From a virus: DNA of 63,982 bases. Under the pieces are notes generated by a model. The model was not told the DNA's origin. It was given only the letters and a program-made list of their open reading frames with translations, and made no database searches. The position numbers and the translations under genes are program-made. How positions within the stretch are numbered: the stretch's first letter is position 1; each line of letters starts with the position of its first letter. The DNA lies in IMG/VR virus record IMGVR_UViG_3300027573_000001, positions 1 to 63,982 of that record. One strand, given 5' to 3'. This document shows positions 1,977 to 63,982 of the stretch, one piece after another.

Positions 1977-2143
1977 TTATTACGACTAAGAATGGTAAAC
2001 CTTACATGAGTAGCTGTCACAAGGTTATGCCGTTAAAGCGTATAGATACTAATAGCCTGAAAGAACGTGCTCAGCGATTGGCTGAGAAGCATAAGAAATC
2101 ACTTAAAATTTTAGAAGAAAGTGATAAAAGAGTAAATGGTACT
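1973..2143 (+). CDS. Hypothetical 56-aa protein (below ORF-track cutoff)
   Basis: ATGA overlap with the upstream stop; manual translation MIITTKNGKPYMSSCHKVMPLKR...; ends within the polymerase start. Confidence 0.3.
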
Positions 2144-5480: not shown

Positions 5481-5921
5481 ATGCCTGGATTTATTTACGA
5501 AAAGGAGGCTACTAGTTTGGGGGCAATACATAAGTTTATAAACATGCCTGAAAAACGTGAGTGTGGAGGGTGTGGACAAGAATTAAGTCATCCCGATCAT
5601 ATACAACCACAAACGTATCGCAAGCCAATCAAGGGAAGGTTTGACCTAATCCCGCCTGTGGCTTTACGTGCATTATCTAAAATATACGAAGAGGGTGCGA
5701 ATGTATATGGAGAGAGTCAGTACATTAGCTCGCCGATGCCTCATAGCGTAGTAATTAATCACTTAATTAATCACTTGACTCTGGCTCAAAGTGGAGATAA
5801 ATCAGAAGATCATTGGGCTAAGATAGCATGGGCTGCTTTCACAATGATAGTGTATGAAAGTATGGATTTAGGAGAAGCTGACTTAACAAGGTACGGAGTA
5901 GTACCTAAGAAGAACGACTAA
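5481..5921 (+). CDS. DUF5664-like protein (dATP/dGTP diphosphohydrolase-like N-terminal domain), putative
   Basis: RFDLIPPVALRALSKIYEEGANVYGESQY resembles the family signature as recalled; SD AAGGGGG upstream. Confidence 0.45.
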   Translation: MPGFIYEKEATSLGAIHKFINMPEKRECGGCGQELSHPDHIQPQTYRKPIKGRFDLIPPVALRALSKIYEEGANVYGESQYISSPMPHSVVINHLINHLTLAQSGDKSEDHWAKIAWAAFTMIVYESMDLGEADLTRYGVVPKKND

Positions 5922-9462: not shown

Positions 9463-9896
9463 TGTAAACGCTCCGAGTTTTCAGCCTGTAACTGTTCTAA
9501 TGGTTCGTTTATGAACCATGTTCTATTAGCAGGATTAGGACGCTGTAGTAGTGTTTTTTCTATTTCATTCAGTACAGTAGGCTCTGGCATGATAATCATA
9601 CGACACTTCCCACCTATATCGGAATTGCCACATAGAGCGCATACCATTATATGTGGGCCTTTTCGCCATACATATTCTGCACCTAAACAATTAGGGCAGT
9701 CTGCAAGTAGTCTACTGTGCGATATATGTACTATCGCAGGATTTTGGTCACTAATATTCTTCTCGTCTGGTACAGTTATCCCTGAGCGTCTTGCGGTCTG
9801 TATCCATTTAGTACGCCAAAAGTCCCTTAGAGACATATCAAAGTTTGACTGCCCGTCTATTAAGTGCTGAGTTTGAGTTTTAGTTTGGGAAGGCAT
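9459..9896 (-). CDS. Hypothetical tail-module protein (Cys cluster CPNC...CALCG)
   Basis: ORF track; start and stop overlap both neighbours. Confidence 0.55.
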   Translation of the reverse strand: MPSQTKTQTQHLIDGQSNFDMSLRDFWRTKWIQTARRSGITVPDEKNISDQNPAIVHISHSRLLADCPNCLGAEYVWRKGPHIMVCALCGNSDIGGKCRMIIMPEPTVLNEIEKTLLQRPNPANRTWFINEPLEQLQAENSERLQ

Positions 9897-11071
9897 TATG
9901 TTAGTCTCGCATTTATTTTTACGTAGGCAGTTTGTCCTAGTAGTATTGCCGAGTGTCCAGCCGTTAGTCCAGCGGCCACTGTAGCTCTCATTAATGGAAG
10001 TATAGGACTAGTTCCTATTACACTAAGTGCTGTGACGTTAGTAGACCCTGCTTGTGTGTATACCTTTAAGTTAGCTATAGTATCTACGCTTACTGTAGGA
10101 GTAGCCCGTTTACGTTGAAATGGTACTAAGAAATCTGCTACTGTCGTACTGGTACAGAAACCAGTACCTACAGCAGTATTAACGTTGTTACCAAGTACTT
10201 CAAAATATCTCTTACACAGTAAATCTTCTATAGCATATGGCCTTACATCATACGGACCGCAATACGGCCCTGGTCGAGCAGTAAGGCCACATACTGAAAA
10301 GTCATTTGATACAGTACCAAGTACATTAGGCTGTACAGATGTGCTCATCTTTAAAGCAGATAGCCATGAGCCTGAAACATCTTGCTGATTAGCTCCGATA
10401 CCTAAAGCGAATCTAATTCTTAGTCCAGTACCAGTCTCATAGTTCCAAGTACCAGCAGTCGGACTAGCAGGTACAGTTATACTTTTTTCTTCCCACGTAT
10501 TAGCTGCGTTTATAGTATAGGTACCTATATAAGTTCTATCACTACCATCATTTACGAAAGCTATACTATATACGCCAGTAAGTGTAGCTTTCACCCAAAA
10601 CCTAATAGTAAACTCTCTTTGTGCTAGTATACCCCAAAGAAATCCCTCAGTAAGATGTTCTAGAAAATACCAGTCAGTAGCAGGGTCTAATGAAGCATCA
10701 GGCGTAGTTACTAATACTCGTAAAGAGTATGGTATTTTTGAGGCATTAACTCCAGGAGTAGGAGTATTAGTAGATATTGCTAAAGTAACTGCTCCCACTC
10801 CCCCCGCGGTATGCCAGCGCCATTGATCGGGGCCATATACTAAGTTACCAATTGCAGGGTAAGATAATGCATCAGACCATATTAGAGGTCCACCGTTTAC
10901 AATAGGATTAGTATTCCATTGTCCATTATATGAATTATCTATAAGAGCTAGGATATTGTCATTTGCTCTATTAATAAGCGAACGTAACCCTAGACCACCT
11001 GCTGCTGAACCAGGAGGGTCAGCAGGTTCAATATCTGGTAACTCAGGAATACCATTAGGAAAGTCAGTCAT
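9896..11071 (-). CDS. Tail or baseplate structural protein (putative)
   Basis: Position between distal tail genes and the fibre; translationally coupled. Confidence 0.5.
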   Translation of the reverse strand: MTDFPNGIPELPDIEPADPPGSAAGGLGLRSLINRANDNILALIDNSYNGQWNTNPIVNGGPLIWSDALSYPAIGNLVYGPDQWRWHTAGGVGAVTLAISTNTPTPGVNASKIPYSLRVLVTTPDASLDPATDWYFLEHLTEGFLWGILAQREFTIRFWVKATLTGVYSIAFVNDGSDRTYIGTYTINAANTWEEKSITVPASPTAGTWNYETGTGLRIRFALGIGANQQDVSGSWLSALKMSTSVQPNVLGTVSNDFSVCGLTARPGPYCGPYDVRPYAIEDLLCKRYFEVLGNNVNTAVGTGFCTSTTVADFLVPFQRKRATPTVSVDTIANLKVYTQAGSTNVTALSVIGTSPILPLMRATVAAGLTAGHSAILLGQTAYVKINARLT

Positions 11072-41168: not shown

Positions 41169-41242
41169 ACTTGTGTATGGTTGGGAACCCCCACGAGAAA
41201 AATTGTAAAATTTGCGATTATCCACTACGGGGGTGATAATTT

Positions 41243-41328
41243 ATTGATACAGTGTATCAATGCACAAATGCGCTCAATCGTTGCACGCATTGCAACTGAG
41301 CATTTGTGCATTGATACACTGTATCAAT
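41243..41328. repeat. Perfect inverted repeat, 29-bp arms (ATTGATACAGTGTATCAATGCACAAATGC), 28-nt spacer holding a further GTTGCA/TGCAAC hairpin
   Basis: Arms 41243-41271 and 41300-41328 are exact reverse complements. Each arm contains a 19-bp near-palindrome. Confidence 0.9.
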
Positions 41329-41344
41329 ACATAATCAAAAGAGA

Positions 41345-46658: not shown

Positions 46659-46814
46659 TGTTAGTATGGGCTAACAAAAAAGGCTAGCACATGCTAAGGC
46701 TTATCCTTAGTACGTACTAACCTTTTTCATTAGCCTATACTTTCATCTCAAATTAGCTTATGCTCATACACGCCGTTAGCGTAGGCTAACCTATTTTTTA
46801 GGGTCCAACTCAAA

Positions 46815-52444: not shown

Positions 52445-53791
52445 ATGGTACTAGCTGCTGAACCATTACAAGAAACTACCAATGAGTTACTTACTTTACG
52501 TGAGTATCAACGTATAGGTCGGGACTTCTTAATAGATAAGAAGCGTGCATTCTTAACTGACTGGCCGGGTTTGGGTAAGACACTACAAGCGGCTGAGGCT
52601 ACTGTAGAATTCCCTGCTATAGTTAGTGCGCCTGCTTACTTAACTGAACAATGGTATAATTTCCTTGTTAAGCAGTATCCTAACAAGCGTGTGATTATGG
52701 CTACTGGTGCTACTATGCATCGTTTTGAGCGCCAGAAGATGTTAAATAAGCGTGCCGATTGGTATGTAGTAAACCACCAAATGTTCCGTGGTTGGTTTAC
52801 TATACCAGAATGTAAGACGGTTATATTTGATGAATGCCATCATCTACGCAATCGAACCGCGTTACAGTCTAAGGGAGCAGCAAAGTACGCGGCTAATATG
52901 GATAGACGGGTTTATATGTTATCAGCAACTCCCATGTGGAAAGATACTGATGACATTTGGATGCAGCTTCATATTGTCCAACCGCAAATCTTTACTTCTT
53001 ACAGAGATTTCGTGGACTATTTCATGCTTGTTGATGAAACAGCCTATGGACCCAAAGTACTTGGATTAAAGCGTCAAACTAAAAAAGAACTAGAAGCTAT
53101 GCTTTCAGTTCTAATGCTAGGTCGTTCATATAAGGATGTAGGACGGCAGTTACCTGATACAATTGAAACAGAAATTATTGTAGACTTTCCTAAACCTATA
53201 CAAGAGAAGTATGACGAACTACGAAAGAAGTACCGAGTACAATTCAATGAGGATGAAACGCTCATACTTTCTAGTTACTTGCAGGTACTGCGGTTACTAC
53301 GCTTGTTCACAAACTTTAAGGATAAACAAGAAGCAGCCCTTTCGCGCATTGAAGATGTTGATAAGCCAACATTGGTATTTACATGGTACATTGATACCGC
53401 AGAAGATATCTCAAAACTGATAGCGCAACGGTTCGGTAAGGATAATGTGTACTGTTTAACAGGTCATATTGATCCACAAGAGCGCCATAAGTTAGCACAC
53501 GAAGCACAAAGGAAAGGTAAGCATATTGTAGCTACTCTAAGCTCGCTTGGTGAAGGAATTAATCTGTATCAATATCGACACGTTCTCTTCTATGAAGAAG
53601 ATTGGCCTCCTGGACGAAACTACCAGGGATTGAGTAGAGTTGTACGTGACCGTAATGATGACGGACACAATACTGAACCTGTATTAGTATCATACGTCCA
53701 TGTCAACCGTAGTGTAGATGTCGCTATTCATAAGTCTAGTAAGAAGCGATCGTCTAACATCAAACAAGTTATGCAGGACATATTACTATAA
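52445..53791 (+). CDS. SNF2-family (SF2) helicase/translocase
   Basis: DWPGLGKTLQA, DECHHLRN, LSATP, GEGINL, QGLSRVVR. Confidence 0.85.
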   Translation: MVLAAEPLQETTNELLTLREYQRIGRDFLIDKKRAFLTDWPGLGKTLQAAEATVEFPAIVSAPAYLTEQWYNFLVKQYPNKRVIMATGATMHRFERQKMLNKRADWYVVNHQMFRGWFTIPECKTVIFDECHHLRNRTALQSKGAAKYAANMDRRVYMLSATPMWKDTDDIWMQLHIVQPQIFTSYRDFVDYFMLVDETAYGPKVLGLKRQTKKELEAMLSVLMLGRSYKDVGRQLPDTIETEIIVDFPKPIQEKYDELRKKYRVQFNEDETLILSSYLQVLRLLRLFTNFKDKQEAALSRIEDVDKPTLVFTWYIDTAEDISKLIAQRFGKDNVYCLTGHIDPQERHKLAHEAQRKGKHIVATLSSLGEGINLYQYRHVLFYEEDWPPGRNYQGLSRVVRDRNDDGHNTEPVLVSYVHVNRSVDVAIHKSSKKRSSNIKQVMQDILL

Positions 53792-53795
53792 AGGA

Positions 53796-54767
53796 ATGAG
53801 TATGAGAGATTTGTCAGGCTATCAAGCTAAGATTGTCTGTGATACTACAAATGGTGTAGGTACTCGTGTAACTACATTTGAGCTACAAATGCCTAAGTGG
53901 CTTGTAGCCGAATTGAATACGCATCGTAGTGCGCCCGAGGTTACTCGTCATCTTGCCCGTAATAGTGCTAGTAGCAGAGCAGTACCTACATCACGTATCA
54001 TTGCTGCTGTTACAACCAACCCTGTATACCCTACAGGATGGGAACTACAAGAAGATTTTATAGACGGACTGATTAATAATCCTGTTGTACCTACTGATTG
54101 GCGTGAGAACACAGGAGGTATGCAACAGGATACTATTCTTAGTGACTCAACTATAGCTACGCTTGACTACCTCTGGTTGCGTGCTAGAGATAGTATGATA
54201 AACTACGCTAGGCGTATGCTTGAACTAAAGGCTGATAAGCAGCGTGTGAATCGAATGCTTGAACCGTGGATGTGGACTAAAGTAGTAATTACTAGTACGG
54301 AGTGGGATGCATTCTTTGAACTAAGGAATCATCCCGCTGCACAACCTGAGTTTGGACACATTGCTCACTTAATGCATACAGAGTATAGTTCAAATGAGCC
54401 TAAATTAGCATACTGGCACATGCCATATTTACTTAATGATGATGATTTACAAGATGAGCATATAAACTACTTAAGAGGACTAAAGTTAGCAGGACACGAG
54501 CTTGTTAATCTTAACACTCCAGTCTTTGCTTATTTGCTTATTAGTGCTGCTAGGTGTGGGAGGGTTACATACTATCGTCAAGGAGAGACTAAAGACTTAC
54601 TAGATGATATACAGCGTGGACTCAGCTTTGCTAATAATAAGCATTGGTCACCTTTAGAGCACTGTGGTAGATTAATGAACGATAACAAGTGGTACGGGCC
54701 ATTCTTCGAGTTTAAATCACTACGTAAATATTTCCTTAATGAGTCTGGAAAAGGACGCCGACGGTGA
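53796..54767 (+). CDS. thyX: ThyX-like flavin-dependent thymidylate synthase (divergent motif)
   Basis: ELNTHRS..TRHLARNSASSRAV in place of RHRxxSxxxxSxR; WDAFFELRNHPAAQPEFGHIAHLM. Start moved to the ATG after the AAAGGA SD. Confidence 0.7.
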   Translation: MSMRDLSGYQAKIVCDTTNGVGTRVTTFELQMPKWLVAELNTHRSAPEVTRHLARNSASSRAVPTSRIIAAVTTNPVYPTGWELQEDFIDGLINNPVVPTDWRENTGGMQQDTILSDSTIATLDYLWLRARDSMINYARRMLELKADKQRVNRMLEPWMWTKVVITSTEWDAFFELRNHPAAQPEFGHIAHLMHTEYSSNEPKLAYWHMPYLLNDDDLQDEHINYLRGLKLAGHELVNLNTPVFAYLLISAARCGRVTYYRQGETKDLLDDIQRGLSFANNKHWSPLEHCGRLMNDNKWYGPFFEFKSLRKYFLNESGKGRRR

Positions 54768-54952: not shown

Positions 54953-55455
54953 TTGCTGACGAACAAGAACTAGATCAAATATGGGAACCATATCCGCTAC
55001 AGCTAGGAGCAGTAGTTCGTATTAATATTAGTAACGAATGTAGTGTTGAGATGGAGTCAAGATTACATATTGAACAAATTAATAAAACTTTTGAGGATAA
55101 TAGAAAACACGCCCATCCAAAAGCTTATGATAAACAAATAGGAGTTGTTATTGGTATAGAAGATGATCCAGATAGACGAGGACATAGATATAGAGTTTTT
55201 ACCATCAAGGCTATATCCCACAACAACGAAGATTTATTAGGAGCAGACTTTGCAGGCGTAGAGCTAGAGTACATAGAGAGACATTTAACACGGCATGAAT
55301 GGAGCTTTGTTGTAGGTAGTGCAGTTCTCTTTGGCTTGCCTTGTCCTGAATACTGGAGTATACATCGAGTAGAATACTCTGATACAGGAGAGCCACAGGA
55401 CAAGGTTATTTGTATGGGCAGCTTACTAGACAATACATGTGGAAGGCATAGATAA
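54931..55455 (+). CDS. Hypothetical protein
   Basis: ORF track. Confidence 0.5.
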   Translation: MWEGNTVIADEQELDQIWEPYPLQLGAVVRINISNECSVEMESRLHIEQINKTFEDNRKHAHPKAYDKQIGVVIGIEDDPDRRGHRYRVFTIKAISHNNEDLLGADFAGVELEYIERHLTRHEWSFVVGSAVLFGLPCPEYWSIHRVEYSDTGEPQDKVICMGSLLDNTCGRHR

Positions 55456-55542
55456 TACGTACTTTTCTACGGAAAAAAGTACCTACTTGAATATTTCCTA
55501 TATGTGTGGTACTATGTAATAGTGGGGAGAAACGCACCAGTC

Positions 55543-56589
55543 ATGATTACATCTATTAGCGACATTCAGACGTATTTACGCTGTCGCAGACAGTGGGATT
55601 ACCAGTCTTCAAATAGGCGCAACCTTACTCGCGGCGGTATGAAAGCACCTGAGTTAGAACTAGGCACACTTATCCACGCTGCGTTAGCTGATTGGACACT
55701 TAGACCAGACATTGATCCCGTAAAGCTATTCATGCAGCATAGCGCAAAGCGTCTAAACGAAATTCAGAAGCAGTATCTAGAACTAGTAGGTACAAGTATT
55801 AGTGACGATGAACTATCATCATTCTATGCCTCAATAGATCTAGGCAAGGATATGATAGCTAACTACAAAGAACACTGGAAGACTCCACTACCTAATAACT
55901 TTGAATATGCATTCCCTGAACAAGAGGTTATAGTAGATATTCCTGGCACTGAACATAGATGTAAGTCATGCTTTGATTCAGCATATAAGAATGAAAGCAT
56001 AACAGTTATTTACTCAAATGATGCAGAAATTAAATTCTCTGCTAATAGTGATTGTCCTAAGTGTCATGGTACTGGTGTAGAAAAGCATCAAATCCGTGCT
56101 ATTCTTGATGGCTTGCTAAAGAGTAAGCGTGGTACGTATGTTGTGCTAGAGCGTAAGACATTTGATCCACGCTATGCCCCTACTGAGGAAAGTTTACAGA
56201 CTAACTTTCAGTTTGTAGGGTATACATGGATCGTGCGTGAGTTAGGTATGACACCTGTAGCTGGTGTAGCCTATGATGGACTACGTAAGCAAAAGGCACC
56301 AGGAAAGACAGGTAAAGCAACACGATTGGAAGACTTGTTTATCCGTACAATGGTGCAGTTTACAACTGAGCAACTTGATTTATGGGCAGTAGACCTAGCG
56401 GCTATTGTTAATGAAATGGCTAACAATCCTGTGATTTATCCTCATAGGCCGTGGGATGGATGTCGTCGTTGTTCATTCGATAGCCTGTGCCAGTCACAAT
56501 CACGCGGCGAAGACTTTGAGCACTTGATTCAACTTAACTACGTACAGCGGCCAAACACACGCCCTATTCTTACGGTGGTAAATAACTAA
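55543..56589 (+). CDS. PD-(D/E)XK nuclease, Cas4/RecB-like with C-terminal Cys cluster
   Basis: ISDIQTYLRCRRQW at the N-terminus; ILDGLL..VVLERKT; CRRCSFDSLC at the C-terminus. Confidence 0.7.
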   Translation: MITSISDIQTYLRCRRQWDYQSSNRRNLTRGGMKAPELELGTLIHAALADWTLRPDIDPVKLFMQHSAKRLNEIQKQYLELVGTSISDDELSSFYASIDLGKDMIANYKEHWKTPLPNNFEYAFPEQEVIVDIPGTEHRCKSCFDSAYKNESITVIYSNDAEIKFSANSDCPKCHGTGVEKHQIRAILDGLLKSKRGTYVVLERKTFDPRYAPTEESLQTNFQFVGYTWIVRELGMTPVAGVAYDGLRKQKAPGKTGKATRLEDLFIRTMVQFTTEQLDLWAVDLAAIVNEMANNPVIYPHRPWDGCRRCSFDSLCQSQSRGEDFEHLIQLNYVQRPNTRPILTVVNN

Positions 56590-57176
56590 TGCCTGTTCTG
56601 AGTGATTTTGATTTACTACAACTTGGTGGAAGATTAACTGAACCTTTCATACCTACTAATGTACAGCCTAATAGTATTGATGTGCATTTAGGACAATCGG
56701 TTAAGTACTCAAACATCCCTGTCGATTATGTGTATGATATGCGAAAGGCACATCTTGACGGGATTGATTACACAGAACATGATCTAACTAAAAGTGACTT
56801 AATAATTCCATCAAGACGATTTTGTTTAGGGGTAACTCTAGAAACTATTAAAGTACCACAAGTTTATTATAATTATGCTGGAATCTTCTCTCTTACTGCG
56901 AAGATTGAAGGTAGGTCAGGAGTAGGTAGGACAGGTCTTTGTGTTGTCAATGCAGGTAGAGTAGACACAGGATGGGAAGGTAAGCTAACATTAGAACTAT
57001 ACAACTCGGAGCAGTTTCCTATTGTGTTATTCTATGGTATGCCGATCGCACAAGTAGTATATGAGACTACAGTATCTCCAGTAGGCATACCCTATGGTGC
57101 ACCAGCATTGCACAGTAAGTATCAAGGTGATACTAAAGCTGAACCATCAAAGATGTGGAAGAATTATGCTGATTGA
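56589..57176 (+). CDS. dcd: dCTP deaminase / dUTPase-superfamily protein
   Basis: NSIDVHLG; GRSGVGRTGL..NAGRVDTGWEGKLTLELYN; MPIAQVVY. Confidence 0.8.
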   Translation: MPVLSDFDLLQLGGRLTEPFIPTNVQPNSIDVHLGQSVKYSNIPVDYVYDMRKAHLDGIDYTEHDLTKSDLIIPSRRFCLGVTLETIKVPQVYYNYAGIFSLTAKIEGRSGVGRTGLCVVNAGRVDTGWEGKLTLELYNSEQFPIVLFYGMPIAQVVYETTVSPVGIPYGAPALHSKYQGDTKAEPSKMWKNYAD

Positions 57177-57354
57177 ACTTAGTATAATATACATACTATG
57201 TGCTGTGTCTATCTGTATATCACTCTACTTGTGGTACAAAGTAGGAGAACTAACAGAGGGAAGTAGTCATAATGCATGGACAGTAGAATATAGACTAAAT
57301 AACCTACTAAAGCGAATAGAGAAGTTAGAAGCTGCACAGAAGATAGAAGAGTAA
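57166..57354 (+). CDS. Small single-TM protein
   Basis: MLIELSIIYILCAVSICISLYLWY then a coiled tail; start moved to the internal ATG. Confidence 0.45.
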   Translation: MLIELSIIYILCAVSICISLYLWYKVGELTEGSSHNAWTVEYRLNNLLKRIEKLEAAQKIEE

Positions 57355-57402
57355 ACACTATGGGCGTGGACCGAACGGTTTGACGGTGATTGTCTTATAA
57401 AC

Positions 57403-57476
57403 GGGGCGGAAGCATAACTGGTATATGCAGGCGTCTTATAAGCGCCAGATAGTGCGTTCAAGTCGCACCCGCCCTA
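57403..57476 (+). tRNA. tRNA-Ile (anticodon UAU), tentative
   Basis: Hand fold: acceptor GGGGCGG/CCGCCCT (G1-U72), D stem GCAT/ATGC, anticodon stem GGCGT/GCGCC with loop CTTATAA, T arm GTGCG-TTCAAGT-CGCAC. A at position 8 is atypical. Confidence 0.55.
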
Positions 57477-57478
57477 CC

Positions 57479-57568
57479 GAGTAGAAAGATGACTAATACC
57501 GTGAGGATTAGTGGTGAGTAGTTAGCTATTCGGACTAGCTAATTATCCTATGCAGCATCTTTCTACTC
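57479..57568 (+). ncRNA. Closed structured element 1 (13-bp closing stem, two inner hairpins, GUGA tetraloop)
   Basis: GAGTAGAAAGATG (57479-57491) pairs perfectly with CATCTTTCTACTC (57556-57568). Inner hairpins ACTAAT.CC[GTGA]GG.ATTAGT and TAGTTAGCTA..TAGCTAATTA. Confidence 0.5.
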
Positions 57569-57570
57569 AT

Positions 57571-57654
57571 GCCCGCATGGCGGAATTGGCAGACGCAACT
57601 GATTTAAAATCAGTCGCCAGTAATGGCATCAGGGTTCGAGTCCCTGTGTGGGCA
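57571..57654 (+). tRNA. tRNA-Leu (anticodon UAA), long variable arm
   Basis: Acceptor GCCCGCA/TGTGGGC, anticodon arm ACTGA-TTTAAAA-TCAGT, T arm CAGGG-TTCGAGT-CCCTG. Confidence 0.85.
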
Positions 57655-57656
57655 CC

Positions 57657-57749
57657 GAGTTAGAGATGCTACTAATCGTGAGGTTAGTAGGAAGTTAAGT
57701 AGTATCGTGCCCATCAGTATTACTTAGTTTCTGCCCACATCTCTAACTC
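57657..57749 (+). ncRNA. Closed structured element 2 (paralog of element 1)
   Basis: GAGTTAGAGATG (57657-57668) pairs perfectly with CATCTCTAACTC (57738-57749). Inner hairpin CTACTAATC[GTGA]GGTTAGTAG. Confidence 0.5.
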
Positions 57750-57777
57750 TACTAATTGCGCGGAGGAAGGTTAGGTA

Positions 57778-58089
57778 TTGATTGCTTTAATTATCGGCAC
57801 AGCTATGCTTTGGTGTCAAGAAGCAAGAGTAACTGGATATGTCAGGACGGAGTTTAGCTCATATACTTATGACGGTACACACATCATGACGGATGAACCT
57901 ATTGTAGCTGCCTCGTGGAATATCCCTATTGATTCATATGTATGGATAGAAGGGCTAGGGACATATAGAGTAGCAGATAGGGGTCATCTAGGATCGTCTG
58001 GATGGATTGACATTCCAGTATGGTCTAGACAAGAGGCATACTCTTTGACTGGTTATCGTACAATTTGTATACATCCAAGTGGACAGTAA
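57778..58089 (+). CDS. 3D-domain (MltA/RlpA-like double-psi barrel) protein
   Basis: TTG start after GGAGGAAGG; IVAASWNIPIDSYVWIEGLGTYRVADRGHLGSSGWIDIPVWS. Confidence 0.6.
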   Translation: MIALIIGTAMLWCQEARVTGYVRTEFSSYTYDGTHIMTDEPIVAASWNIPIDSYVWIEGLGTYRVADRGHLGSSGWIDIPVWSRQEAYSLTGYRTICIHPSGQ

Positions 58090-58091
58090 TT

Positions 58092-58421
58092 ATGGATAAA
58101 ATATGGGGGCTACCTATAGTAATAGTAGATAATGGTTCGATACCTAACGATGTTATTATAGTCTCTAACCAAGAGTTACACATTCCGCACGCAAATGAGG
58201 TACGTACTATGAAGCGCACTGTACAGATTGATGTAACGACGAGCATTCCTGTTGAGGTGGCACAAGAAGCATTGGCTAGTCGAGCACTTGAACTATTGAA
58301 GCGTGAGATTGAAATGGCTACTCGTAAGGCTATTCGTGAGTTCATTGCTAATGGTATCAGTGCTAGCCTTGAAGACTTAGCAATTAAGGCCGAGAAGAAG
58401 ACGGTGAAGTATAGTGGATAA
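58092..58421 (+). CDS. Hypothetical protein
   Basis: ORF track; ATG just after the upstream stop. Confidence 0.5.
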   Translation: MDKIWGLPIVIVDNGSIPNDVIIVSNQELHIPHANEVRTMKRTVQIDVTTSIPVEVAQEALASRALELLKREIEMATRKAIREFIANGISASLEDLAIKAEKKTVKYSG

Positions 58422-58508
58422 ATGGATGGCTGCTATGTGTATGTATATCCTAGTAATTGCGGCAACACTAGCGGGACTAATCTTGCTACTAACAACTGGA
58501 GGTAATTA

Positions 58509-59363
58509 GTGGTACAGAGTGTAGTTGACGATACGGCTTCTTACGATATTCCAGAGACATTCGGTGGAGTACCTATTCGTCCCATTGCTAATATTAGTAC
58601 TAGTATGGGTACGTTCATGGCTTTGTATGGGGGAGGGGGAGTAGGTAAAACAGCAACTATTGGTAAGGTAGCTCATAGTCACGGACCGCTATTGTACGTT
58701 GATGCTGAGGGTGGAGGTAAGTCTATTACACATATTCCAGGAATTCATATCGCCGAGGTTACTACATGGAGAGAGATAGCTAATATAACTCGTGACTTGA
58801 AAGGAAAAGCAGGTAAGTACCCCTTCAAGACTATATGTTTCGATAATTTATCGGAGATACAGTCTCTATGCTTAAATGATATTGTCCCAGTAGGTAGCGC
58901 AGTACAAATTCAGCATTACGGCGAAGCTACAGCTAGAATGCTAAAACTTACTAGGGACTTACGAGAAGTAGCACGTACACAGGGGGTGCATGTATTTCTT
59001 ATTGCATGGGATAGTCCAGAAATGAGTGAAGGTGGAGTAGTCACAAAGCGTGGAGTAGGATTCACTCCATCACTCGCACGGCAGTTTCCAGGGATTGTAA
59101 CCTATGTCGGTTATTTACAAGCCGTTGATGGGTACCCGACTATACGCAGACTTAGCTTCACTGTTAGTAGCAAAACCGATGCCAAGTTCCGTGTATCACC
59201 TAGTGAAGCTGTTGCGGAAATACCGCTTGAATTATGGATTCGTCAGGAAGATAACATACTTGGTGATATTATCGAGACAGAAGCAAAAGGAAAGAAGTTC
59301 CCTGCCAACAAGTACGGTAAACCCAACGAGACTGAGCGTGAGAAAGAGCGAGTGCGTATCTAG
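58509..59363 (+). CDS. P-loop ATPase (AAA_24/Sak4-like recombination ATPase, putative)
   Basis: GTG start after GGAGG; ALYGGGGVGKTAT Walker A; ICFDNLSE Walker B-like. Confidence 0.65.
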   Translation: MVQSVVDDTASYDIPETFGGVPIRPIANISTSMGTFMALYGGGGVGKTATIGKVAHSHGPLLYVDAEGGGKSITHIPGIHIAEVTTWREIANITRDLKGKAGKYPFKTICFDNLSEIQSLCLNDIVPVGSAVQIQHYGEATARMLKLTRDLREVARTQGVHVFLIAWDSPEMSEGGVVTKRGVGFTPSLARQFPGIVTYVGYLQAVDGYPTIRRLSFTVSSKTDAKFRVSPSEAVAEIPLELWIRQEDNILGDIIETEAKGKKFPANKYGKPNETEREKERVRI

Positions 59364-59458
59364 TACACGTACTCATACTAACCTACATACATTCTGGTAC
59401 AGGAGTAGAGCACCGCCCATAAACAGAACAAGTTAATCCAGTCCACACCCCCAACATC

Positions 59459-59522
59459 TAAACACTACCTACTAAGTCACATAGTTTAAGACGCGAACGG
59501 TCCGCTTAGTAGGTAGTGTTTA
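59459..59522. repeat. Perfect 18-bp inverted repeat TAAACACTACCTACTAAG / CTTAGTAGGTAGTGTTTA, 28-nt spacer
   Basis: Read directly. Confidence 0.9.
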
Positions 59523-59526
59523 TTCA

Positions 59527-59566
59527 GCATAAACCTACAAATGTAGGCATAAACCTACAAATGTAG
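59527..59566. promoter_or_regulatory. Two tandem 20-bp units, each with the palindrome CCTACAAATGTAGG (operator-like)
   Basis: GCATAAACCTACAAATGTAG x2, 45 nt upstream of the GTG at 59612. Confidence 0.6.
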
Positions 59567-59611
59567 GTACAAGCCTCCTCCCGTTAATCGGGCAAGAAAG
59601 AGGAAACTTCC

Positions 59612-60004
59612 GTGCCAATTATTGACTTTAGTGGTGTGCAAGAGCTTGAAGCTCTTCCCGAAGATACGTACCCCTGCATCATTGCTGATATCAGCCGTGA
59701 GACTGCAAAGGAAGCGGGAAAGTACGACTACTACAAGGTAAAGTTCACGGTCAGCGATGATACCTCCGACGTTAATGGGCGCTCAGTGTACCGTAACTAC
59801 AGCCTTAGCCCTAAGTCGCTGTGGGCACTTAAGCAGTTCATGGTTATTGCTGGTACTGACCCTGAGAAGTTCAGTGGTGAAGTGGACACAGACGAAGAGA
59901 TGCTTGAGCTTAAGGGTGCAGAGGTAGACGTTACTGTATCCGTTAAGACCTATAACGATAAGCTCGTTAATGAGGTCACAAAGGTAGCGCCTCCAGGTAT
60001 CTAA
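59612..60004 (+). CDS. DUF669-like protein (putative ssDNA-binding partner of the Sak4-like ATPase)
   Basis: N-terminal IIDFSGVQELEALPEDTYPCIIADI resembles DUF669; adjacency to the AAA_24-like gene. Confidence 0.45.
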   Translation: MPIIDFSGVQELEALPEDTYPCIIADISRETAKEAGKYDYYKVKFTVSDDTSDVNGRSVYRNYSLSPKSLWALKQFMVIAGTDPEKFSGEVDTDEEMLELKGAEVDVTVSVKTYNDKLVNEVTKVAPPGI

Positions 60005-60101
60005 GAGTACACCACTAGTATTAGGTGGTCAAGTCAGCGGTAAAGAGTATGTGTACGGAGGCTGACTGGCATATACATACTTACCACTTTAGGAGAACAT
60101 A

Positions 60102-60290
60102 ATGCGTAAGACTATTGCAGCGTTTGTTTTCGCACTCACCTTAATGGTGACTACTACTAGTGCTACTTTTGCTGCTCCGTCGCCACCGACGAATGGTGGT
60201 AACGGTGCTGGTTCTAGTGGTAATTGTACTGGTCCTGCCAGTGAGCGTCCGACTTCCTGTCAGTCGCCAGGTGGTGTATCAGGTCGCTAA
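60102..60290 (+). CDS. Secreted small peptide precursor (signal peptide plus 37-aa Pro/Gly/Ser-rich, 2-Cys peptide)
   Basis: AGGAG SD; MRKTIAAFVFALTLMVTTTSATFA|AP... Confidence 0.55.
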   Translation: MRKTIAAFVFALTLMVTTTSATFAAPSPPTNGGNGAGSSGNCTGPASERPTSCQSPGGVSGR

Positions 60291-60479
60291 CTAAAAATAC
60301 TGGCGCCGTAGGGTACTTGGAAGGTAACAACCAAGCTAGTATTTGTGTAGTAGTACATCTCCAAACGCAGTTGGTCAAGCGAACAACGTAAAAGCGTGCG
60401 TTGCCCATTTGGGGCATAGGAACCACTACCACGCTACTGTGTAGACTACTACCCTACATTTATTATACGGAGAATAATT

Positions 60480-60683
60480 ATGACTGAGGAAGATTTTCAG
60501 ACGAAATATCATACTTACTCAACATATAATTATGAGAATGCGAAAGCCGAAGCAGAATCAATTACTCTTAGCGATGGAAGGCATCCTGAGGTAATAGGCT
60601 TTCCATTTGGACAAAATATCCAATATTGCTTAGTTCTACCTAGAGCAGCAAAATATATTAGTAGTCTGTATCTAGCTAGTTAG
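60480..60683 (+). CDS. Hypothetical protein
   Basis: GGAG SD; ORF track. Confidence 0.5.
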   Translation: MTEEDFQTKYHTYSTYNYENAKAEAESITLSDGRHPEVIGFPFGQNIQYCLVLPRAAKYISSLYLAS

Positions 60684-60688
60684 CGCAT

Positions 60689-60765
60689 AGGACCGTTAGC
60701 TCAATCGGCAGAGCACATGGTTTACATCCATGAGGTTCCGCGTTCGAGTCGCGGACGGTCCACCA
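60689..60765 (+). tRNA. tRNA-Val (anticodon UAC), CCA encoded
   Basis: Acceptor GGACCGT/ACGGTCC, anticodon arm CATGG-TTTACAT-CCATG, T arm CCGCG-TTCGAGT-CGCGG. Confidence 0.85.
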
Positions 60766-60854
60766 GAGAGGTTTAGTAACCCTACTGTGATGGACGCATC
60801 CTCCTTAAGATACTCATATAGTGGACTGTATACAGTTCGGCGAACAACTCTCTG
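60764..60854 (+). ncRNA. Closed structured element 3a (starts inside the CCA of tRNA-Val)
   Basis: CAGAGAG (60764-60770) pairs with CTCTCTG (60848-60854), plus 2 more pairs past a bulge. Inner ACTGTATACAGT hairpin. Confidence 0.35.
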
Positions 60855-60857
60855 AAT

Positions 60858-60951
60858 GTAGAGTACGCAGCATAGCTGTGGACCGTAGGGGAAGGTACCC
60901 CCACTCAATAGGTACAACGGAATCTGTGAGAGAGACACAGACGTACTCTAC
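60858..60951 (+). ncRNA. Closed structured element 3b
   Basis: GTAGAGTACG (60858-60867) pairs with CGTACTCTAC (60942-60951). Inner GGGG..CCCC and TCTGTG-AGAGAGA-CACAGA hairpins. Confidence 0.4.
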
Positions 60952-60954
60952 TCT

Positions 60955-61012
60955 TTATAATATCTTTTATCTTAGAATTCGCTTTGCACAGGGCCTAGCT
61001 CGCGCAGCGTAA
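60955..61012 (+). repeat. Dispersed motif copy E (core TTGCACAGGG 60984-60993; CGCGCAGCG 61001-61009)
   Basis: Read directly; upstream of ATG 61041. Confidence 0.85.
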
Positions 61013-61040
61013 TTCGTAGTACTACCAAAAGGATAGCGTA

Positions 61041-61322
61041 ATGCCAATAGAAATCACTAAAATAGATATTCAGCCAGAAACTTTCTACGACGAAGAGACA
61101 GATGAAACCTTTGAATTGCCTGCACGTATTGCTCTAAGTGGAGAGTGTGACGTACATAAAGTAGGGGCTTATGTACCTATTAATGCCTCATGGGCATACG
61201 ACGATCCCAAAACTATGAAATTACTGACCAATCGCCTGCTATATTATATGAGACAAGAAGGCTGTACTTGTGTAGATAATCATCCAGATTATGTACCGCC
61301 AGTAGTCGACGCTGAACGCTGA
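61041..61322 (+). CDS. Hypothetical acidic protein
   Basis: AAAGGA SD; ORF track. Confidence 0.5.
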   Translation: MPIEITKIDIQPETFYDEETDETFELPARIALSGECDVHKVGAYVPINASWAYDDPKTMKLLTNRLLYYMRQEGCTCVDNHPDYVPPVVDAER

Positions 61323-61339
61323 ACGTCAGGGGCGCGATT

Positions 61340-61612
61340 ATGAGTAACTATCTCAACCAAAATGTATTACGAATAGCATCACATAAAGGAAGACAAAAAA
61401 GCTCACTAGCTGATATATACAAACAGAAGTACCGTAACTTAAACGGGCGGCGAAAGAAGCCTAGTAAGCTACCTAAGAGCAAAGAACGAGAAATATTCTA
61501 CACCGAAACAGAATACAATAATATACCAAAGACTTCTAATGCACTACCGAAAAGACATATCGACGAAACCTTTGAGGAATACTACAACAGAATACGAAGT
61601 GGAATTGTATGA
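61340..61612 (+). CDS. Hypothetical basic protein
   Basis: AGGGG SD; ORF track. Confidence 0.5.
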   Translation: MSNYLNQNVLRIASHKGRQKSSLADIYKQKYRNLNGRRKKPSKLPKSKEREIFYTETEYNNIPKTSNALPKRHIDETFEEYYNRIRSGIV

Positions 61613-61634
61613 GTTAGGGGCGTAATCGGATAAC

Positions 61635-63982
61635 ATGAAGTTAGCCGAATTTCTGGAAGAAGTAGTAACTGGTGGAGAGGGCTGGTTTAACCTTTGCCAC
61701 GCGAAAGCTAATGGTACAGGATGGAAAGAAGAGTGGTTCAGATACCCTAATCAGCTTAACGATATATGTAGTAGAATAGGCCAGCTAAAAGCAGAAAATG
61801 TATACTTCTCACCGTACTTGTTTGAGACGAAACAAAGTACAAAAGAGGCTGCGATTGTCGGTCGGACTATAGTCGCCGATCTAGACGATGCTAATGTATT
61901 AACTATTCAACCACGACCTAGTATACTTGTGCAAACAAGTGCTGGAAGGCATCAAGCATATTGGATACTAACTGATGCTCTTTCTCGTAATGCTCATGAA
62001 CACCTTAGCAAGCGCATCACTTATGGTATTCCTGCTTGTGACCGTACAGGATGGTTTATCGGCAAAAGGGTTCGCGTTCCTGGAACTAACAATTATAAGT
62101 GGGATCGTGACAGTGATATCGTTAGAGTGCTTCCTTCAACACATAAACAACATACAGCGGCAGACTTCCAACACTTACCAGAAATCCCTACACGATCAAC
62201 TAATTCAAATGAAGAGGCTGGAGACGCAGATAATTTTATTAGAGACGCGCTTACAGTCAGTAGCGGCCCTCAGGAATTCTTAGAGAAAGTACGCAGCAAG
62301 TTACCACCTAAAGTAGTTACACAGTATAACTTTGAGGCAAGGGACCGTAGTGCTGCACTGTGGACACTGAATATAGCAGCTTTCCGTGCAGGACTAAGTT
62401 CTAAGGAAGTATTCTTCTTAGCACGAGGTAGTGCTAATAATAAGTTCACCAGTCTCCGATTCAACGGCGATGTTGAATTGATGAAGGATGTTCTGCGTGC
62501 ACAACAACAAGTGTACAGCGAGCATATGTCTGGTGATTACAGAGAAAAGATTAAAGAGATTAGGCGGTTTCCAGGATTGGGACACGAGAAGCTAGCTTAC
62601 CTTGCACAAACAGTTAGAGAGAACATGAAAGCTCGCGGACAGTTCATCAACTGTGCCGATGGTACTTCATGGTTCATAGACAATGTACTTGGTAAGCCTA
62701 TGGCGGTTCTAGCTCGCTCAGAAGCTCTACAAACAACACTGGATGCATGGTATGGACTCAATCCTATTGAACGCGAATCAGCATACACTATTGGTCACTT
62801 ATCGTCCTACGTAGCTGGTCTGCCTCCTGTGGGTAGACTCGCTGCGCTATCCTACTATGACATGGACACGAATGCACTGTACCTGCATACTGGACGCAAG
62901 GAAGTTCTCAGGGTTACTTCACGAGACATTACTACAGTTACAAATGGCTATGACAGCTTAGTATTCCATTGGGCATCTTTAAATGAAACAATTAATCCTC
63001 ACTACAAGCACTATGACACTAAATGGGAGGATATTCTCTTCGAGAACGCTTTAGACAATATGATAGGATTGAAGATAAGTGAAGCTAAAGCGTTGCTCAA
63101 AGTGTGGATGCTTATGCTGTTGCTCAGAAGCTCTGTCGTCACGCGTCCTATACTCTGTATCTTTGGTCAACCTGGTGCTGGAAAAAGTACTTTATTCAGG
63201 CGTGTATATACTCTTCTTTATGGGAGGGGTCGCAGCCTTTCTAGTATTACTACTCCTGATAACTTTGATTACGCAACGGCTTCTGATCCTTTGGTAGTAT
63301 TTGATAATGTTGATACATGGGAACGGTGGCTACCTGATAGACTTGCCCTCGCTGCGGCGGTTAGCGAAGTCAAGAAGCGAAAACTGTATACTAACAATGA
63401 CACAATTACTCTTACTAGACAAGCATTCATCGGTCTTACAGCCCACAACCCAAAATTTGGGAGAGAGGATGTTACGGACAGACTTATTATCCTCACTCTC
63501 GAACGACTCAAAAAGTTCGACAGCGAGACAGATATTCTAGGGTATATACATAGCAATCGTAGCACCATTTGGGGACTAATTATTCAAGACATCCAGAAAA
63601 TCTTAAGTACGGAAGTACCTGTTAGTGGATTCACAGACTTTCGTATTCAAGACTTTGCTCGTTACGGAGCTTGGATAGCAAAAGCAGTAGGTATATTAGA
63701 CGAGTTTAACTCGGCACTTGCTACCATAGTTTCGGAACAGAAGACATTTGCTATGGAGGAAGATGGCTTATTACTTGATGCACTGTATAAGTACTTAACT
63801 ATTAAGCACAACTCGAATGAGGAACAAGTATTCCGCCCGCCGAGTAATTGGTGGGCATTACTAGAGCCCCACTCTAGGGATATGCAGGCATTCCAGAGAC
63901 AGTACAAGAATGCTGTAGTTCTAGGAAAGAAGTTCTGGACGCTCCATGATGCAATGAAAGGAATGTTCTTTGTAGATTGGGA
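61635..63982 (+). CDS. Primase-helicase: RepB'-like primase/prim-pol N-terminal domain plus VirE/D5-like P-loop helicase (runs off the window end and continues at 1..257)
   Basis: Manual translation: VYFSPYLF, VADLDD, SAGRHQAYW, RVPGTNNYK. Walker A IFGQPGAGKST; Walker B PLVVFDNVD. No in-frame stop to 63982. Confidence 0.8.
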   Translation, partial: MKLAEFLEEVVTGGEGWFNLCHAKANGTGWKEEWFRYPNQLNDICSRIGQLKAENVYFSPYLFETKQSTKEAAIVGRTIVADLDDANVLTIQPRPSILVQTSAGRHQAYWILTDALSRNAHEHLSKRITYGIPACDRTGWFIGKRVRVPGTNNYKWDRDSDIVRVLPSTHKQHTAADFQHLPEIPTRSTNSNEEAGDADNFIRDALTVSSGPQEFLEKVRSKLPPKVVTQYNFEARDRSAALWTLNIAAFRAGLSSKEVFFLARGSANNKFTSLRFNGDVELMKDVLRAQQQVYSEHMSGDYREKIKEIRRFPGLGHEKLAYLAQTVRENMKARGQFINCADGTSWFIDNVLGKPMAVLARSEALQTTLDAWYGLNPIERESAYTIGHLSSYVAGLPPVGRLAALSYYDMDTNALYLHTGRKEVLRVTSRDITTVTNGYDSLVFHWASLNETINPHYKHYDTKWEDILFENALDNMIGLKISEAKALLKVWMLMLLLRSSVVTRPILCIFGQPGAGKSTLFRRVYTLLYGRGRSLSSITTPDNFDYATASDPLVVFDNVDTWERWLPDRLALAAAVSEVKKRKLYTNNDTITLTRQAFIGLTAHNPKFGREDVTDRLIILTLERLKKFDSETDILGYIHSNRSTIWGLIIQDIQKILSTEVPVSGFTDFRIQDFARYGAWIAKAVGILDEFNSALATIVSEQKTFAMEEDGLLLDALYKYLTIKHNSNEEQVFRPPSNWWALLEPHSRDMQAFQRQYKNAVVLGKKFWTLHDAMKGMFFVDW
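63856..63982. repeat. Terminal direct repeat (copy of 1-127)
   Basis: Identical sequence. Confidence 0.95.

Follow-up and report, generated by a model that had tools for sequence, protein, structure and literature searches.

Closed three-way-junction RNA elements adjoin tRNA genes in a clade of uncultured soil phages

The 63,982-nucleotide stretch of DNA analysed here (positions 1 to 63,982 of IMG/VR record IMGVR_UViG_3300027573_000001; hereafter, the window) represents the complete or nearly complete genome (~64 kb) of a soil phage that is uncultured, with a GC content of 42%. Two structured elements, which we call el1 and el2, lie in it directly downstream of the genes for tRNA-Ile and tRNA-Leu, respectively. 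The evidence set out below supports the conclusion that both elements are real and paralogous, and that they form closed three-way junctions at the level of RNA, as judged from their strand-specific G·U pairs. They constitute a new RNA family, known to date only from a single clade of uncultured soil phages. The reading that we favour, while granting that it may well be wrong, is that they are cis-acting punctuation modules of a tRNA–mRNA polycistron, which would define a cut at the ACC/G boundary and leave base-paired, protected ends.

Structure of the two elements

Both elements open with GAGT (at 57479 and 57657), on the first base past A73-C74-C75 of tRNA-Ile and tRNA-Leu. The initial annotation had placed them there, immediately after each discriminator and CC, and its coordinates are borne out by the tRNA ends that Rfam and ARAGORN assign (57476 and 57654). 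el1 is a GNRA-capped three-way junction of 90 nt (57479-57568, + strand) with a minimum free energy (MFE) of −34.5 kcal/mol. The 5′ strand of its closing helix P1, GAGUAGAAAGAUG (57479-57491), forms 13 perfect bp with the 3′ strand, CAUCUUUCUACUC (57556-57568). Enclosed by P1 are a first hairpin, P2, of 8 bp with one bulged A and a C-GUGA-G cap (57492-57512; tetraloop 57501-57504); a second hairpin, P3, of 11-13 bp, two to three of them G·U, with the loop UUCGGAC (57516-57548; loop 57529-57535); and a single-stranded 7-nt linker, J3/1, with the sequence UAUGCAG (57549-57555). The 3′ strand of P1 is followed by AU (57569-57570) and then by the 5′ end of tRNA-Leu.

el2 is built in the same way and comprises 93 nt (57657-57749, + strand), with an MFE of −37.5 kcal/mol versus −24.4 kcal/mol on the − strand. 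Its P1 pairs GAGUUAGAGAUG (57657-57668) with CAUCUCUAACUC (57738-57749) through 12 perfect bp and passes without an unpaired base into P2, a 9-bp hairpin with one U·G pair and, again, a C-GUGA-G cap (57669-57690; tetraloop 57678-57681). P3 (57691-57731) has 15 bp and an 11-nt loop (57706-57716), and J3/1 is the 6-nt linker UGCCCA (57732-57737). The perfect closing helices of 13 and 12 bp, and the common plan of closing stem, GUGA hairpin, second longer hairpin and 3′ linker, are thus as the initial annotation described them.

The same architecture was obtained in the MFE and centroid folds (RNAfold), and when a 421-nt precursor region was folded as a whole, el1, el2 and the tRNA-Ile cloverleaf formed independent domains. 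Both elements fold better than shuffled sequence, which had been proposed as a check on the prediction: on the + strand, the z-score of el1 was −4.53 (1 of 200 shuffles as stable), reaching −5.4 in a second run, and that of el2 was −6.91 (0 of 200). The corresponding z-scores on the − strand were −4.60 (el1) and −2.64 (el2), and the − strand folds were worse by 6-13 kcal/mol. Within the window, the hp1 pattern that the elements share occurs at the el1 and el2 sites only, with 0 occurrences expected. That the two are paralogous, as had been claimed, is supported by a covariance model which was made from el2-type copies only (see below) and nevertheless recovers el1 (E = 8e-5 to 3e-4).

No open reading frame (ORF) of at least 40 amino acids lies across el1 or el2 on the + strand, in agreement with the initial view that nothing protein-coding fits here. 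We also considered a micro-ORF, because the AUG of a conserved AGAUG motif in P1 opens 10-codon ORFs in both el1 and el2. This idea was rejected: among the homologues introduced below, L061 has no AUG, and L064 and L073 have ORFs of different length; in addition, P1 buries the AUG, and no Shine-Dalgarno (SD) sequence is present.

The initial annotation had not recognised the elements as a known family, and cmscan against Rfam 15 gave no match to them. All 4227 families, searched at gathering thresholds, yielded tRNAs only; a permissive search of 57300-57850 (E ≤ 10) added two unrelated weak matches inside tRNA-Leu and no hatchet, pistol, twister, twister-sister, hammerhead or HDV-type ribozyme; and at E ≤ 1, six related loci gave no ribozyme or other known family over the elements. 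Rfam gave no GOLLD or ROOL match in the window or its relatives. Nor do the elements resemble intrinsic terminators, being followed by AU and a tRNA, or by UACUAAUU, with no U-tract at the hairpin. A miniature inverted-repeat transposable element or insertion sequence would be expected to leave target-site duplications, and none is present in the flanks (ACC before and AU after the element, ACC and UAC, or GGCU and UAC); moreover, the terminal strands covary, and include G·U pairs that are mismatches on the other strand, which runs counter to conserved terminal repeats.

Homologues in related phages

Relatives of the window were reached through homologues of the adjacent dCTP deaminase and AAA_24 ATPase genes, which led to syntenic contigs from soil and farmland metagenomes with protein identities of 86%, 77%, 74%, 54%, 54% and 48%. 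These yielded five further members of the family, so that seven copies from five lineages are available (W_el1 and W_el2 from the window, and one copy each from the contigs that we designate L053, L056, L061, L064 and L073). L056 carries a copy of el1, found also in L055, L057 and L059, and L053 carries a copy of el2. The L064 copy has a GUAA loop, while that of L061 has a 14-bp P1 which includes two G·U pairs. The copy in L073 has a GCGA loop, a P1 of 9 bp and an internal loop in P2, and was found with E = 2.8e-7 by the covariance model from el2-type sequences only. All members have z-scores of −5.2 to −8.6 on the + strand, and each is more stable there than on the − strand. L065 harbours a related closed junction that lacks the GNRA cap.

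Beyond these contigs, phages that are more distant (AAA_24 at 39-42% identity) have no tRNAs at the locus, and scans of IMG/VR and JGI metagenomes anchored on the dCTP deaminase (DCD) or AAA_24 gave nothing new. The searches of public collections were pattern-based and narrow. A scan of IMG/VR with the hp1 pattern returned 49 matches, all of them chance occurrences in coding DNA, and scans with the pattern of the P1 ends returned 14 and 33 loci, of which one, L122, is possibly relevant; L115, L118, L124 and L125 were rejected as unrelated high-GC intergenic palindromes without a tRNA. Among the matches listed in a pattern scan of GTDB genomes (at least 120), the examined ones with a fully paired P1 were coding (e.g., asd) or long palindromes. 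L122 is a 225-kb contig of an unrelated large phage (IMGVR_UViG_3300028048_001169). Its positions 240-324 form a closed element that has the same P1 ends (GAGUAAUAGAUG...CAUCUAUUACUC) and ends 2 nt before tRNA-Lys; it has no GNRA hairpin and is not matched by the covariance model, and is therefore only possibly related. Further hairpins in the tRNA cluster of that contig start right after tRNA 3′ ends.

Two other sites of the window, 41242-41329 and 46662-46742, gave weak matches to the covariance model on both strands. We rejected them as copies of the family, as they are plain, near-perfect hairpins of 34-36 bp and not three-way junctions. Both are intergenic, with z-scores of about −11, and are candidates for a terminator, an origin or a protein-binding site.

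Conservation and covariation

When the seven copies are aligned, canonical pairs fill 233 of 238 pair cells (86 of 86 in P1), including 22 G·U. None of 500 shuffles reached this level (mean 65%), and sliding the 3′ partner reduced pairing to 30-45%. The alignment was guided by structure and is hence biased towards it, so that counts of pair types overstate the true covariation, and seven copies from five lineages are too few for R-scape-grade statistics. Two observations are independent of the structural alignment. First, the gapless alignment of el2 from the window with that of L053 contains one A-U to C-G and one G-U to G-C change in P3. Second, P1 differs at many positions among the five lineages and contains zero mismatches. 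The initial annotation had pointed to covariation because the closing stems of el1 and el2 differ in sequence and are both fully paired, a pattern which the five additional homologues extend. A palindrome that matters at the level of DNA was rejected in view of the 22 G·U cells and the consistently better folding of the + strand.

Conserved sequence is confined to the helices and the tetraloop. The outer end of P1 is GAGU/ACUC, and its junction-proximal end is AGAUG/CAUCU (CAGAG/CUCUG in L061); the top of P2 is A-Y-C-GNRA-G-G, and the tetraloop varies only within the GNRA class (GUGA, GUAA, GCGA). P1 measures 9-14 bp across the family and 12-14 bp in six of the seven members, and in six of seven its first G pairs with the 3′-terminal C. 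It is separated from P2 by 0-1 unpaired bases, giving a combined length of 21-23 bp in six members and of about 17 bp, with an internal loop, in L073. The remainder is free to change: P3 varies in its loop and in its length (6 to 15 bp), the junction strands (0-3 nt and 6-8 nt) are unconserved, and J3/1 reads UAUGCAG, UCUGCAA, ACUGGGA, UGCCCA, UACCUA, UUAACCC and GUUUUCGA in the seven members (6-8 nt, unconserved).

The copy of el1 in the window is 88.9% identical to that in L056, with flanking genes at 70-82% (DNA), and el2 is 91.4% identical to its counterpart in L053, with flanks at 82-89%. As the identity of tRNA-Leu, used for comparison, is 89.5%, the constraint on the elements is about as strong as that on tRNAs.

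Position relative to tRNA genes and ribosome-binding sites

In four of the seven members, P1 starts directly after ACC or ACCA; these are the two window copies and that of L056, which follow a tRNA, and that of L064, which follows a tRNA 3′ remnant ending in ACCA. In L053, the same G is preceded by GGGGACU of a tRNA remnant, and the copies in L061 and L073 have no tRNA upstream. On the downstream side, el1, like the uncapped junction of L065, ends 2 nt before the next tRNA, and the L073 copy lies between the stop codon of an ORF and tRNA-Lys. The remaining setting had not been seen in the initial annotation: four of the seven copies (W_el2, L053, L061, L064) recur just upstream of ribosome-binding sites, as the last element before an SD sequence, with the start codon 23-36 nt past the element. 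This recurrence suggests a role in the protection of RNA ends.

The association with tRNA 3′ ends extends to the tRNAs of the clade as a whole, for which we used a set of 28 from the window, L053, L056, L061, L064, L065, L073 and L129. A closing helix of at least 9 bp begins within 0-3 nt of the discriminator in 14 of 27 clade tRNAs, versus 11.5% of random positions. C74 and C75 are encoded in 26 of the 28; at position 76, 13 have G, 10 have A and three have U. With CC encoded and A76 mostly absent, precise 3′ processing and the addition of A76 by a CCA-adding enzyme are required.

Proposed role of the elements

In the model that we infer, the module would be transcribed on the + strand as part of a polycistron mixing tRNAs and protein genes, with P1 spanning from the first base after C75 to 2-4 nt before the next tRNA, or to 12-36 nt from the start codon that follows. 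This would lock the spacer in its entirety into one self-contained fold, which would not interfere with the folding of the tRNAs. Endonucleolytic release of a tRNA would leave the neighbouring RNA with fully paired termini and no overhang, which would make these ends poor substrates for the 5′-end-dependent RNase E/J and for 3′ exonucleases. If the cut were at ACC/G, no unpaired nt would precede the helix at the 5′ end of the RNA, and four of the seven copies would have a start codon 23-36 nt downstream; this would be the geometry of a 5′ stabiliser, for which fewer than about 2-4 unpaired nt are expected at the mRNA 5′ end, upstream of the ribosome-binding site. Because a stable trailer would resist 3′ nibbling after RNase P had freed the downstream tRNA, an endonuclease would have to cut at or near ACC/G, and the tRNA left with ...CC-OH would be completed with A76 by the CCA-adding enzyme of the host.

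The simplest cutter would be RNase P, which might read the 12-14-bp, G-C-initiated P1 as an acceptor/T-stem-like helix. An alternative would be RNase III, acting on a possible P1+P2 stack of ~21-23 bp; since P1 and P2 abut, with 0-1 unpaired bases between them, they could stack coaxially. On sequence, RNase P, III, Z and E are all candidates. The more specific claim, that the elements are acceptor-stem mimics at which one enzyme, RNase P, makes both the 3′ end of the upstream tRNA and a protected 5′ end downstream, strikes us as unlikely, though attractive in that it would explain why CC is followed by G, and not A, in 13 of the 28 clade tRNAs. An acceptor-like terminal helix with a G-C first pair is present in six of the seven members. 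The Rfam tRNA model matches only the true tRNAs, the elements being three-way junctions without a T arm; the P3 loop of the el1 type (UUCGGAC/UUCGAAC) is T-loop-like, a resemblance that is not seen in el2, L064 or L073.

Several observations weigh against cis-acting punctuation modules. A plain hairpin would be enough to protect an end, and the three-way junction, GNRA cap and AGAUG/CAUCU box suggest a more specific protein or RNA partner. Bacterial type-A RNase P normally uses an RCCA-like tail, and P1 is not followed by one. With a tRNA on either side, el1 has no mRNA end in need of protection. The element is also dispensable, in that el1 is replaced by a small ORF in L053 and L064 and L056 is without el2, while in L061 the spacer from tRNA-Ile to tRNA-Leu is 5 nt and holds no element. 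Finally, the clade has no cultured relatives, the DNA polymerase of the window being <28% identical to any INPHARED entry (tblastn).

If these are punctuation modules, they would point to a designed embedding of tRNAs in phage mRNAs, which provides for cut sites, independent tRNA folding and the survival of the severed mRNA pieces. Spacers of phage tRNA clusters are usually annotated as meaningless; here, they are constrained like tRNAs and form a recognisable RNA family. Should RNase P prove to be the cutter, the elements would represent a bacterial-virus counterpart of the logic of mascRNA and t-elements (see below), would offer a simple, portable way to exact RNA ends in bacteria, for use in tRNA arrays and synthetic operons, and would bear on the 50-year-old question of the extra stable RNAs (rnaC, rnaD) in phage tRNA operons. 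For now, their importance is limited, as the family comes from one clade of uncultured soil phages and is known from sequence alone.

Alternative explanations

The initial annotation had offered a processing module, a trailer-derived small RNA or a self-cleaving ribozyme. The position of the elements fits tRNA-precursor processing and a trailer-derived RNA, whereas the ribozyme finds no support. The strongest competitor of the punctuation modules is a set of trans-acting small stable RNAs, released by tRNA-processing enzymes, to which a protein or RNA of the host or the phage would bind, with the element acting as its partner, decoy or sponge; such RNAs would resemble the stable RNAs rnaC and rnaD of the phage T4 tRNA operon. 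Sequence is conserved in P1 (AGAUG/CAUCU, GAGU/ACUC) and P2 (C-GNRA-G) beyond what an insulator needs, and to the same degree as in tRNAs; the closed ends would make an excised RNA very stable; and rnaC and rnaD show that tRNA operons deliver other stable RNAs. However, there is no conserved single-stranded segment for pairing, as L3 and J3/1 vary freely, nor consistent complementarity to the flanking tRNAs; close relatives differ in the copies that they carry, and no candidate partner protein is encoded beside the elements. Since the junction, GNRA cap and box are more elaborate than the protection of ends needs, we keep this explanation as a serious minority view, in which the three-way junction, once excised, may represent a new type of phage small RNA that has a partner in trans.

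A less probable explanation is an RNase III processing stalk, in which P1, with or without a stacked P2, would be cut on both strands near AGAUG/CAUCU, so that the upstream tRNA, an inner piece with P2 and P3, and the downstream RNA came apart before exonucleases trimmed back to CC. If stacked, P1 and P2, which 0-1 unpaired bases separate, would give a helix of about 21-23 bp in six of the seven copies, the usual minimum size of a substrate (about 20 bp or more), with the conserved box roughly 10-13 bp from the tetraloop, and P1 is free of mismatches in all members (86 of 86 cells). The P1 of L073, at only 9 bp, together with the internal loop in its P2, fits this poorly; a cut inside P1 would leave the trailer of one tRNA paired to the leader of the next; and the exact start of the helix at tRNA position 76 would be unexplained.

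We consider it improbable that the elements are functionless by-products of tRNA-gene turnover or selfish insertion (through homing-endonuclease traffic or tRNA gene replacement), tolerated because a closed fold is harmless. Their patchy presence among close relatives would suit such an origin, as would the tRNA half-remnants that adjoin them (window 57362-57400, L053 1241-1305, L064 before 747) and the HNH and mini-ORFs in the same spacers, but purifying selection is as strong as on the tRNAs, compensatory changes keep all three helices over lineages whose proteins are 48-54% identical, and the flanks carry no target-site duplications, the terminal repeats being covarying and not conserved.

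The weakest candidate is a self-cleaving ribozyme. Its cut would fall at its 5′ terminus, separating C75 from G1, and would thereby set the tRNA 3′ end in the manner of the HDV-like theta ribozymes. The placement exactly at tRNA 3′ ends, the lack of a complete encoded CCA as in theta-ribozyme tRNAs, and the compact, conserved fold would all be in keeping with it. To our knowledge, all classes of small self-cleaving ribozyme depend on unpaired nucleotides that are conserved; those of the GNRA loop are the only ones found here, which makes a ribozyme unlikely. Nucleotides 1-13 pair with the 3′-terminal strand and there is no shared alternative P1: an HDV-like internal partner (at least 6 bp) for nucleotides 1-7 is absent in four of the seven members and non-homologous in the rest. 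No conserved C of the HDV catalytic type opens J3/1, whose first base is U, U, A, U, U, U and G in the seven members, and the hammerhead core CUGANGA is absent in all seven. Taken with the lack of any Rfam ribozyme match at the permissive thresholds given above, a scissile site that lies 9-14 bp from the junction and is beyond the reach of the short P3 of L064, and two members (L061, L073) that have no upstream tRNA at all, these observations render self-cleavage very improbable.

Comparison with known RNAs

We class the elements as structured processing or spacer modules of stable-RNA operons, a kind that is already known. Phage T4 encodes two small structured RNAs of ~120-140 nt, rnaC (species 1) and rnaD (species 2), which likewise lie on the tRNA strand of a phage tRNA cluster, one that includes a gene for a homing endonuclease (segB). 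By annotation, rnaD starts 1 nt after tRNA-Arg and rnaC 6 nt after rnaD, compared with the first base after C75 for el1 and el2, and rnaC, too, folds far better than shuffles (z = −4.6). However, our covariance model, run over the T4 region with filters off, gave a best score of 9.3 bits (E = 0.38) that was not at rnaC or rnaD; rnaC has a tRNA-like T arm, and a three-way junction with a GNRA cap and a closing helix of 12-14 bp is seen in neither T4 RNA.

In plant mitochondria, mRNA ends are made by RNase P/Z under the direction of tRNA-like t-elements and of acceptor-stem-like stem-loops (Forner et al., 2007; PMC1920247). These resemble the phage elements in being non-tRNA structures in long transcripts; their ends are processed ends, and cleavage by RNase P/Z at the base of the terminal helix has been proposed or shown for them. 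The t-elements differ in keeping a T arm (GGTTCRANYCC) and a cloverleaf-like fold, whereas the phage elements have no T arm or Rfam tRNA score and their cleavage is predicted only. The mascRNA of MALAT1 follows the same tRNA-processing logic as the t-elements. By this comparison, rnaC/rnaD and the t-elements are the closest analogues of the family, and not its homologues.

Theta ribozymes are HDV-like and lie by the tRNAs of gut phages, of which only 4.5% of those associated encode CCA (Kienbeck et al., 2024; PMC10879173). Like the present elements, they are phage-encoded and situated a few nt from the 3′ end of tRNAs that mostly lack an encoded CCA; unlike them, they form a nested double pseudoknot, in which the first 6-7 nt (P1) pair with an internal strand past the P3 hairpin, and have a catalytic C at the start of J4/2, whereas the 5′ strand of the elements pairs with the 3′ end. 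RNase III stalks of the rRNA operons (16S/23S) and of the T7 early mRNA sites share with our elements a long helix, formed by two flanks, that closes off a segment of a polycistronic precursor. P1 alone (9-14 bp) is, however, shorter than a typical substrate, and the start at tRNA position 76, the GNRA hairpin and the three-way junction are not features there.

As cited in PMC3997798, 5′-terminal stem-loops stabilise bacterial mRNA (ompA, papA; Emory, Bouvet and Belasco, 1992). The likeness, which would hold for four of the seven copies, is a structure at the extreme 5′ end of an mRNA, without unpaired nucleotides and with the ribosome-binding site a few tens of nt on. Those stabilisers are, by contrast, simple hairpins at the starts of primary transcripts, whereas the elements would acquire their 5′ end when a tRNA is excised, fold into a three-way junction and, in some copies, are placed between two tRNAs. 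GOLLD and ROOL are large non-coding RNAs associated with phages and often adjacent to tRNAs. They are similar in being structured phage RNAs near tRNA genes, and dissimilar in their size of 500-800 nt and in having Rfam models.

Genomic context and additional observations

The window corresponds to JGI 3300009678 contig Ga0105252_10000116, with assemblies in Logan and ENA as well; in a blastn search of INPHARED with the element region, tRNA-Leu was the only match. The locus belongs to the replication and nucleotide-metabolism arm of the genome, where genes for an SNF2 helicase, ThyX, a PD-(D/E)XK nuclease and dCTP deaminase are followed by the tRNA cluster, and then by an ORF of 103 amino acids and the AAA_24 ATPase. 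ARAGORN and Rfam agree on the three tRNAs. tRNA-Ile(UAU) occupies 57403-57478 (+ strand), including C74 and C75 at 57477-57478, with the discriminator A at 57476 and a G in place of A76 (Rfam tRNA, 54.5 bits over 57403-57476). tRNA-Leu(UAA) occupies 57571-57656 (+ strand), including C74 and C75 at 57655-57656, with the discriminator A at 57654, and A76 is again not encoded (55.7 bits over 57571-57654). tRNA-Val(UAC) lies at 60690-60762 and is followed by CCA. The 103-amino-acid ORF has its SD sequence, GGAGGA, at 57762-57767 and a TTG start at 57778 (57762-57780, + strand); because the SD starts only 13 nt past el2, el2 would become the 5′ end of the mRNA for this ORF after the excision of tRNA-Leu. 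Neither a sigma-70 promoter nor an intrinsic terminator is predicted inside the cluster (+ strand terminators were scanned over 55000-62000), and the tRNAs and ORFs are thus probably on one transcript. A Pfam scan of ten window proteins matched no RNA-processing family. Elsewhere in the window, genes at 5481-5918, 2136-4610, 53718-54767 and 56589-57176 encode, respectively, a MazZ-like dATP/dGTP diphosphohydrolase domain (PF18909), a family-A DNA polymerase fused to a UDG-superfamily domain, ThyX and the dCTP deaminase, and a more distant relative, L074, has genes for PTPS, a radical-SAM protein and GTP cyclohydrolase I. These nucleotide-metabolism genes hint at modified DNA bases in the clade.

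Turnover of elements and tRNAs has clearly reshuffled the locus. At 57362-57400 (+ strand), 2 nt upstream of the intact tRNA-Ile, lies a remnant of the 5′ half of an older tRNA-Ile (acceptor strand, D arm and anticodon loop CUUAUAA). It is 90% identical to its counterpart in L053 (922-962), which thus keeps the older 5′ half as well, and its first 26 nt are closely like the intact tRNA-Ile of L056. Given that the old-type gene is still intact in L056, it seems that a newer tRNA-Ile took the place of the 3′ half of the older gene. Degenerate 3′ parts of tRNAs (T arm, acceptor 3′ strand and ACC/ACCA) directly precede the element in L053 (1241-1305) and L064 (~700-746), which suggests repeated replacement of tRNA genes in the clusters. 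ORFs for HNH endonucleases, and small ORFs, are found in or beside the tRNA clusters (L073 10907-11296; L065 8913-9386 and 14090-14548; L053 ~1064-1160; L064 297-488), as is segB in the T4 tRNA cluster. They are likely to drive the presence and absence of tRNAs and spacer elements.

Two stretches of el2, the P3 loop GUGCCCA (57707-57713) and J3/1 UGCCCACA (57732-57739), are complementary to the acceptor 3′ strand of tRNA-Leu (57647-57654). We rejected base-pairing between element and tRNA, as the match is confined to el2, spans 7-8 nt, is equalled (at 8 nt) in 24 of 300 shuffles and is lost in L053; it is probably due to chance or vestigial.

The hexamer ACCGAG recurs at boundaries between tRNAs and elements, including two places without a tRNA (L065 10157 and 10827). 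Another module recurs as well, namely a long simple hairpin, beginning at or inside the CCA of tRNA-Asn or tRNA-Lys, with a CGCCUCCC-like loop (L061 8903-8977, L073 6489-6555, L065 10768-10826); that of L065 is followed by UGACC and then by the next closed element. The L129 element is a further closed module. In the window, two closed domains can be drawn in 60763-60955, after tRNA-Val-CCA (CAGAGAG...CUCUCUG and GUAGAGUACG...CGUACUCUAC), and the stability of the region as a whole does not exceed that of shuffled sequence (z = −0.95). In L061, a closed hairpin that directly precedes tRNA-Val (10974-11041) scores 40.8 bits, against a threshold of 38, with ceN72-3_ceN74-2, an Rfam model of a nematode small RNA; this match is almost certainly spurious, the model being hairpin-shaped. 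Lastly, L065 (the same phage as L066-L072) carries at 9872-10014 a tRNA-like gene (Rfam tRNA, 44.4 bits) with a CCA end and 77 nt in place of the 7-nt anticodon loop. The insert is closed by its own helix, with a UUUAAA bulge, and a closed element of ~140 nt comes next; the gene could represent a short intron-like insertion or a non-decoding tRNA-like RNA.

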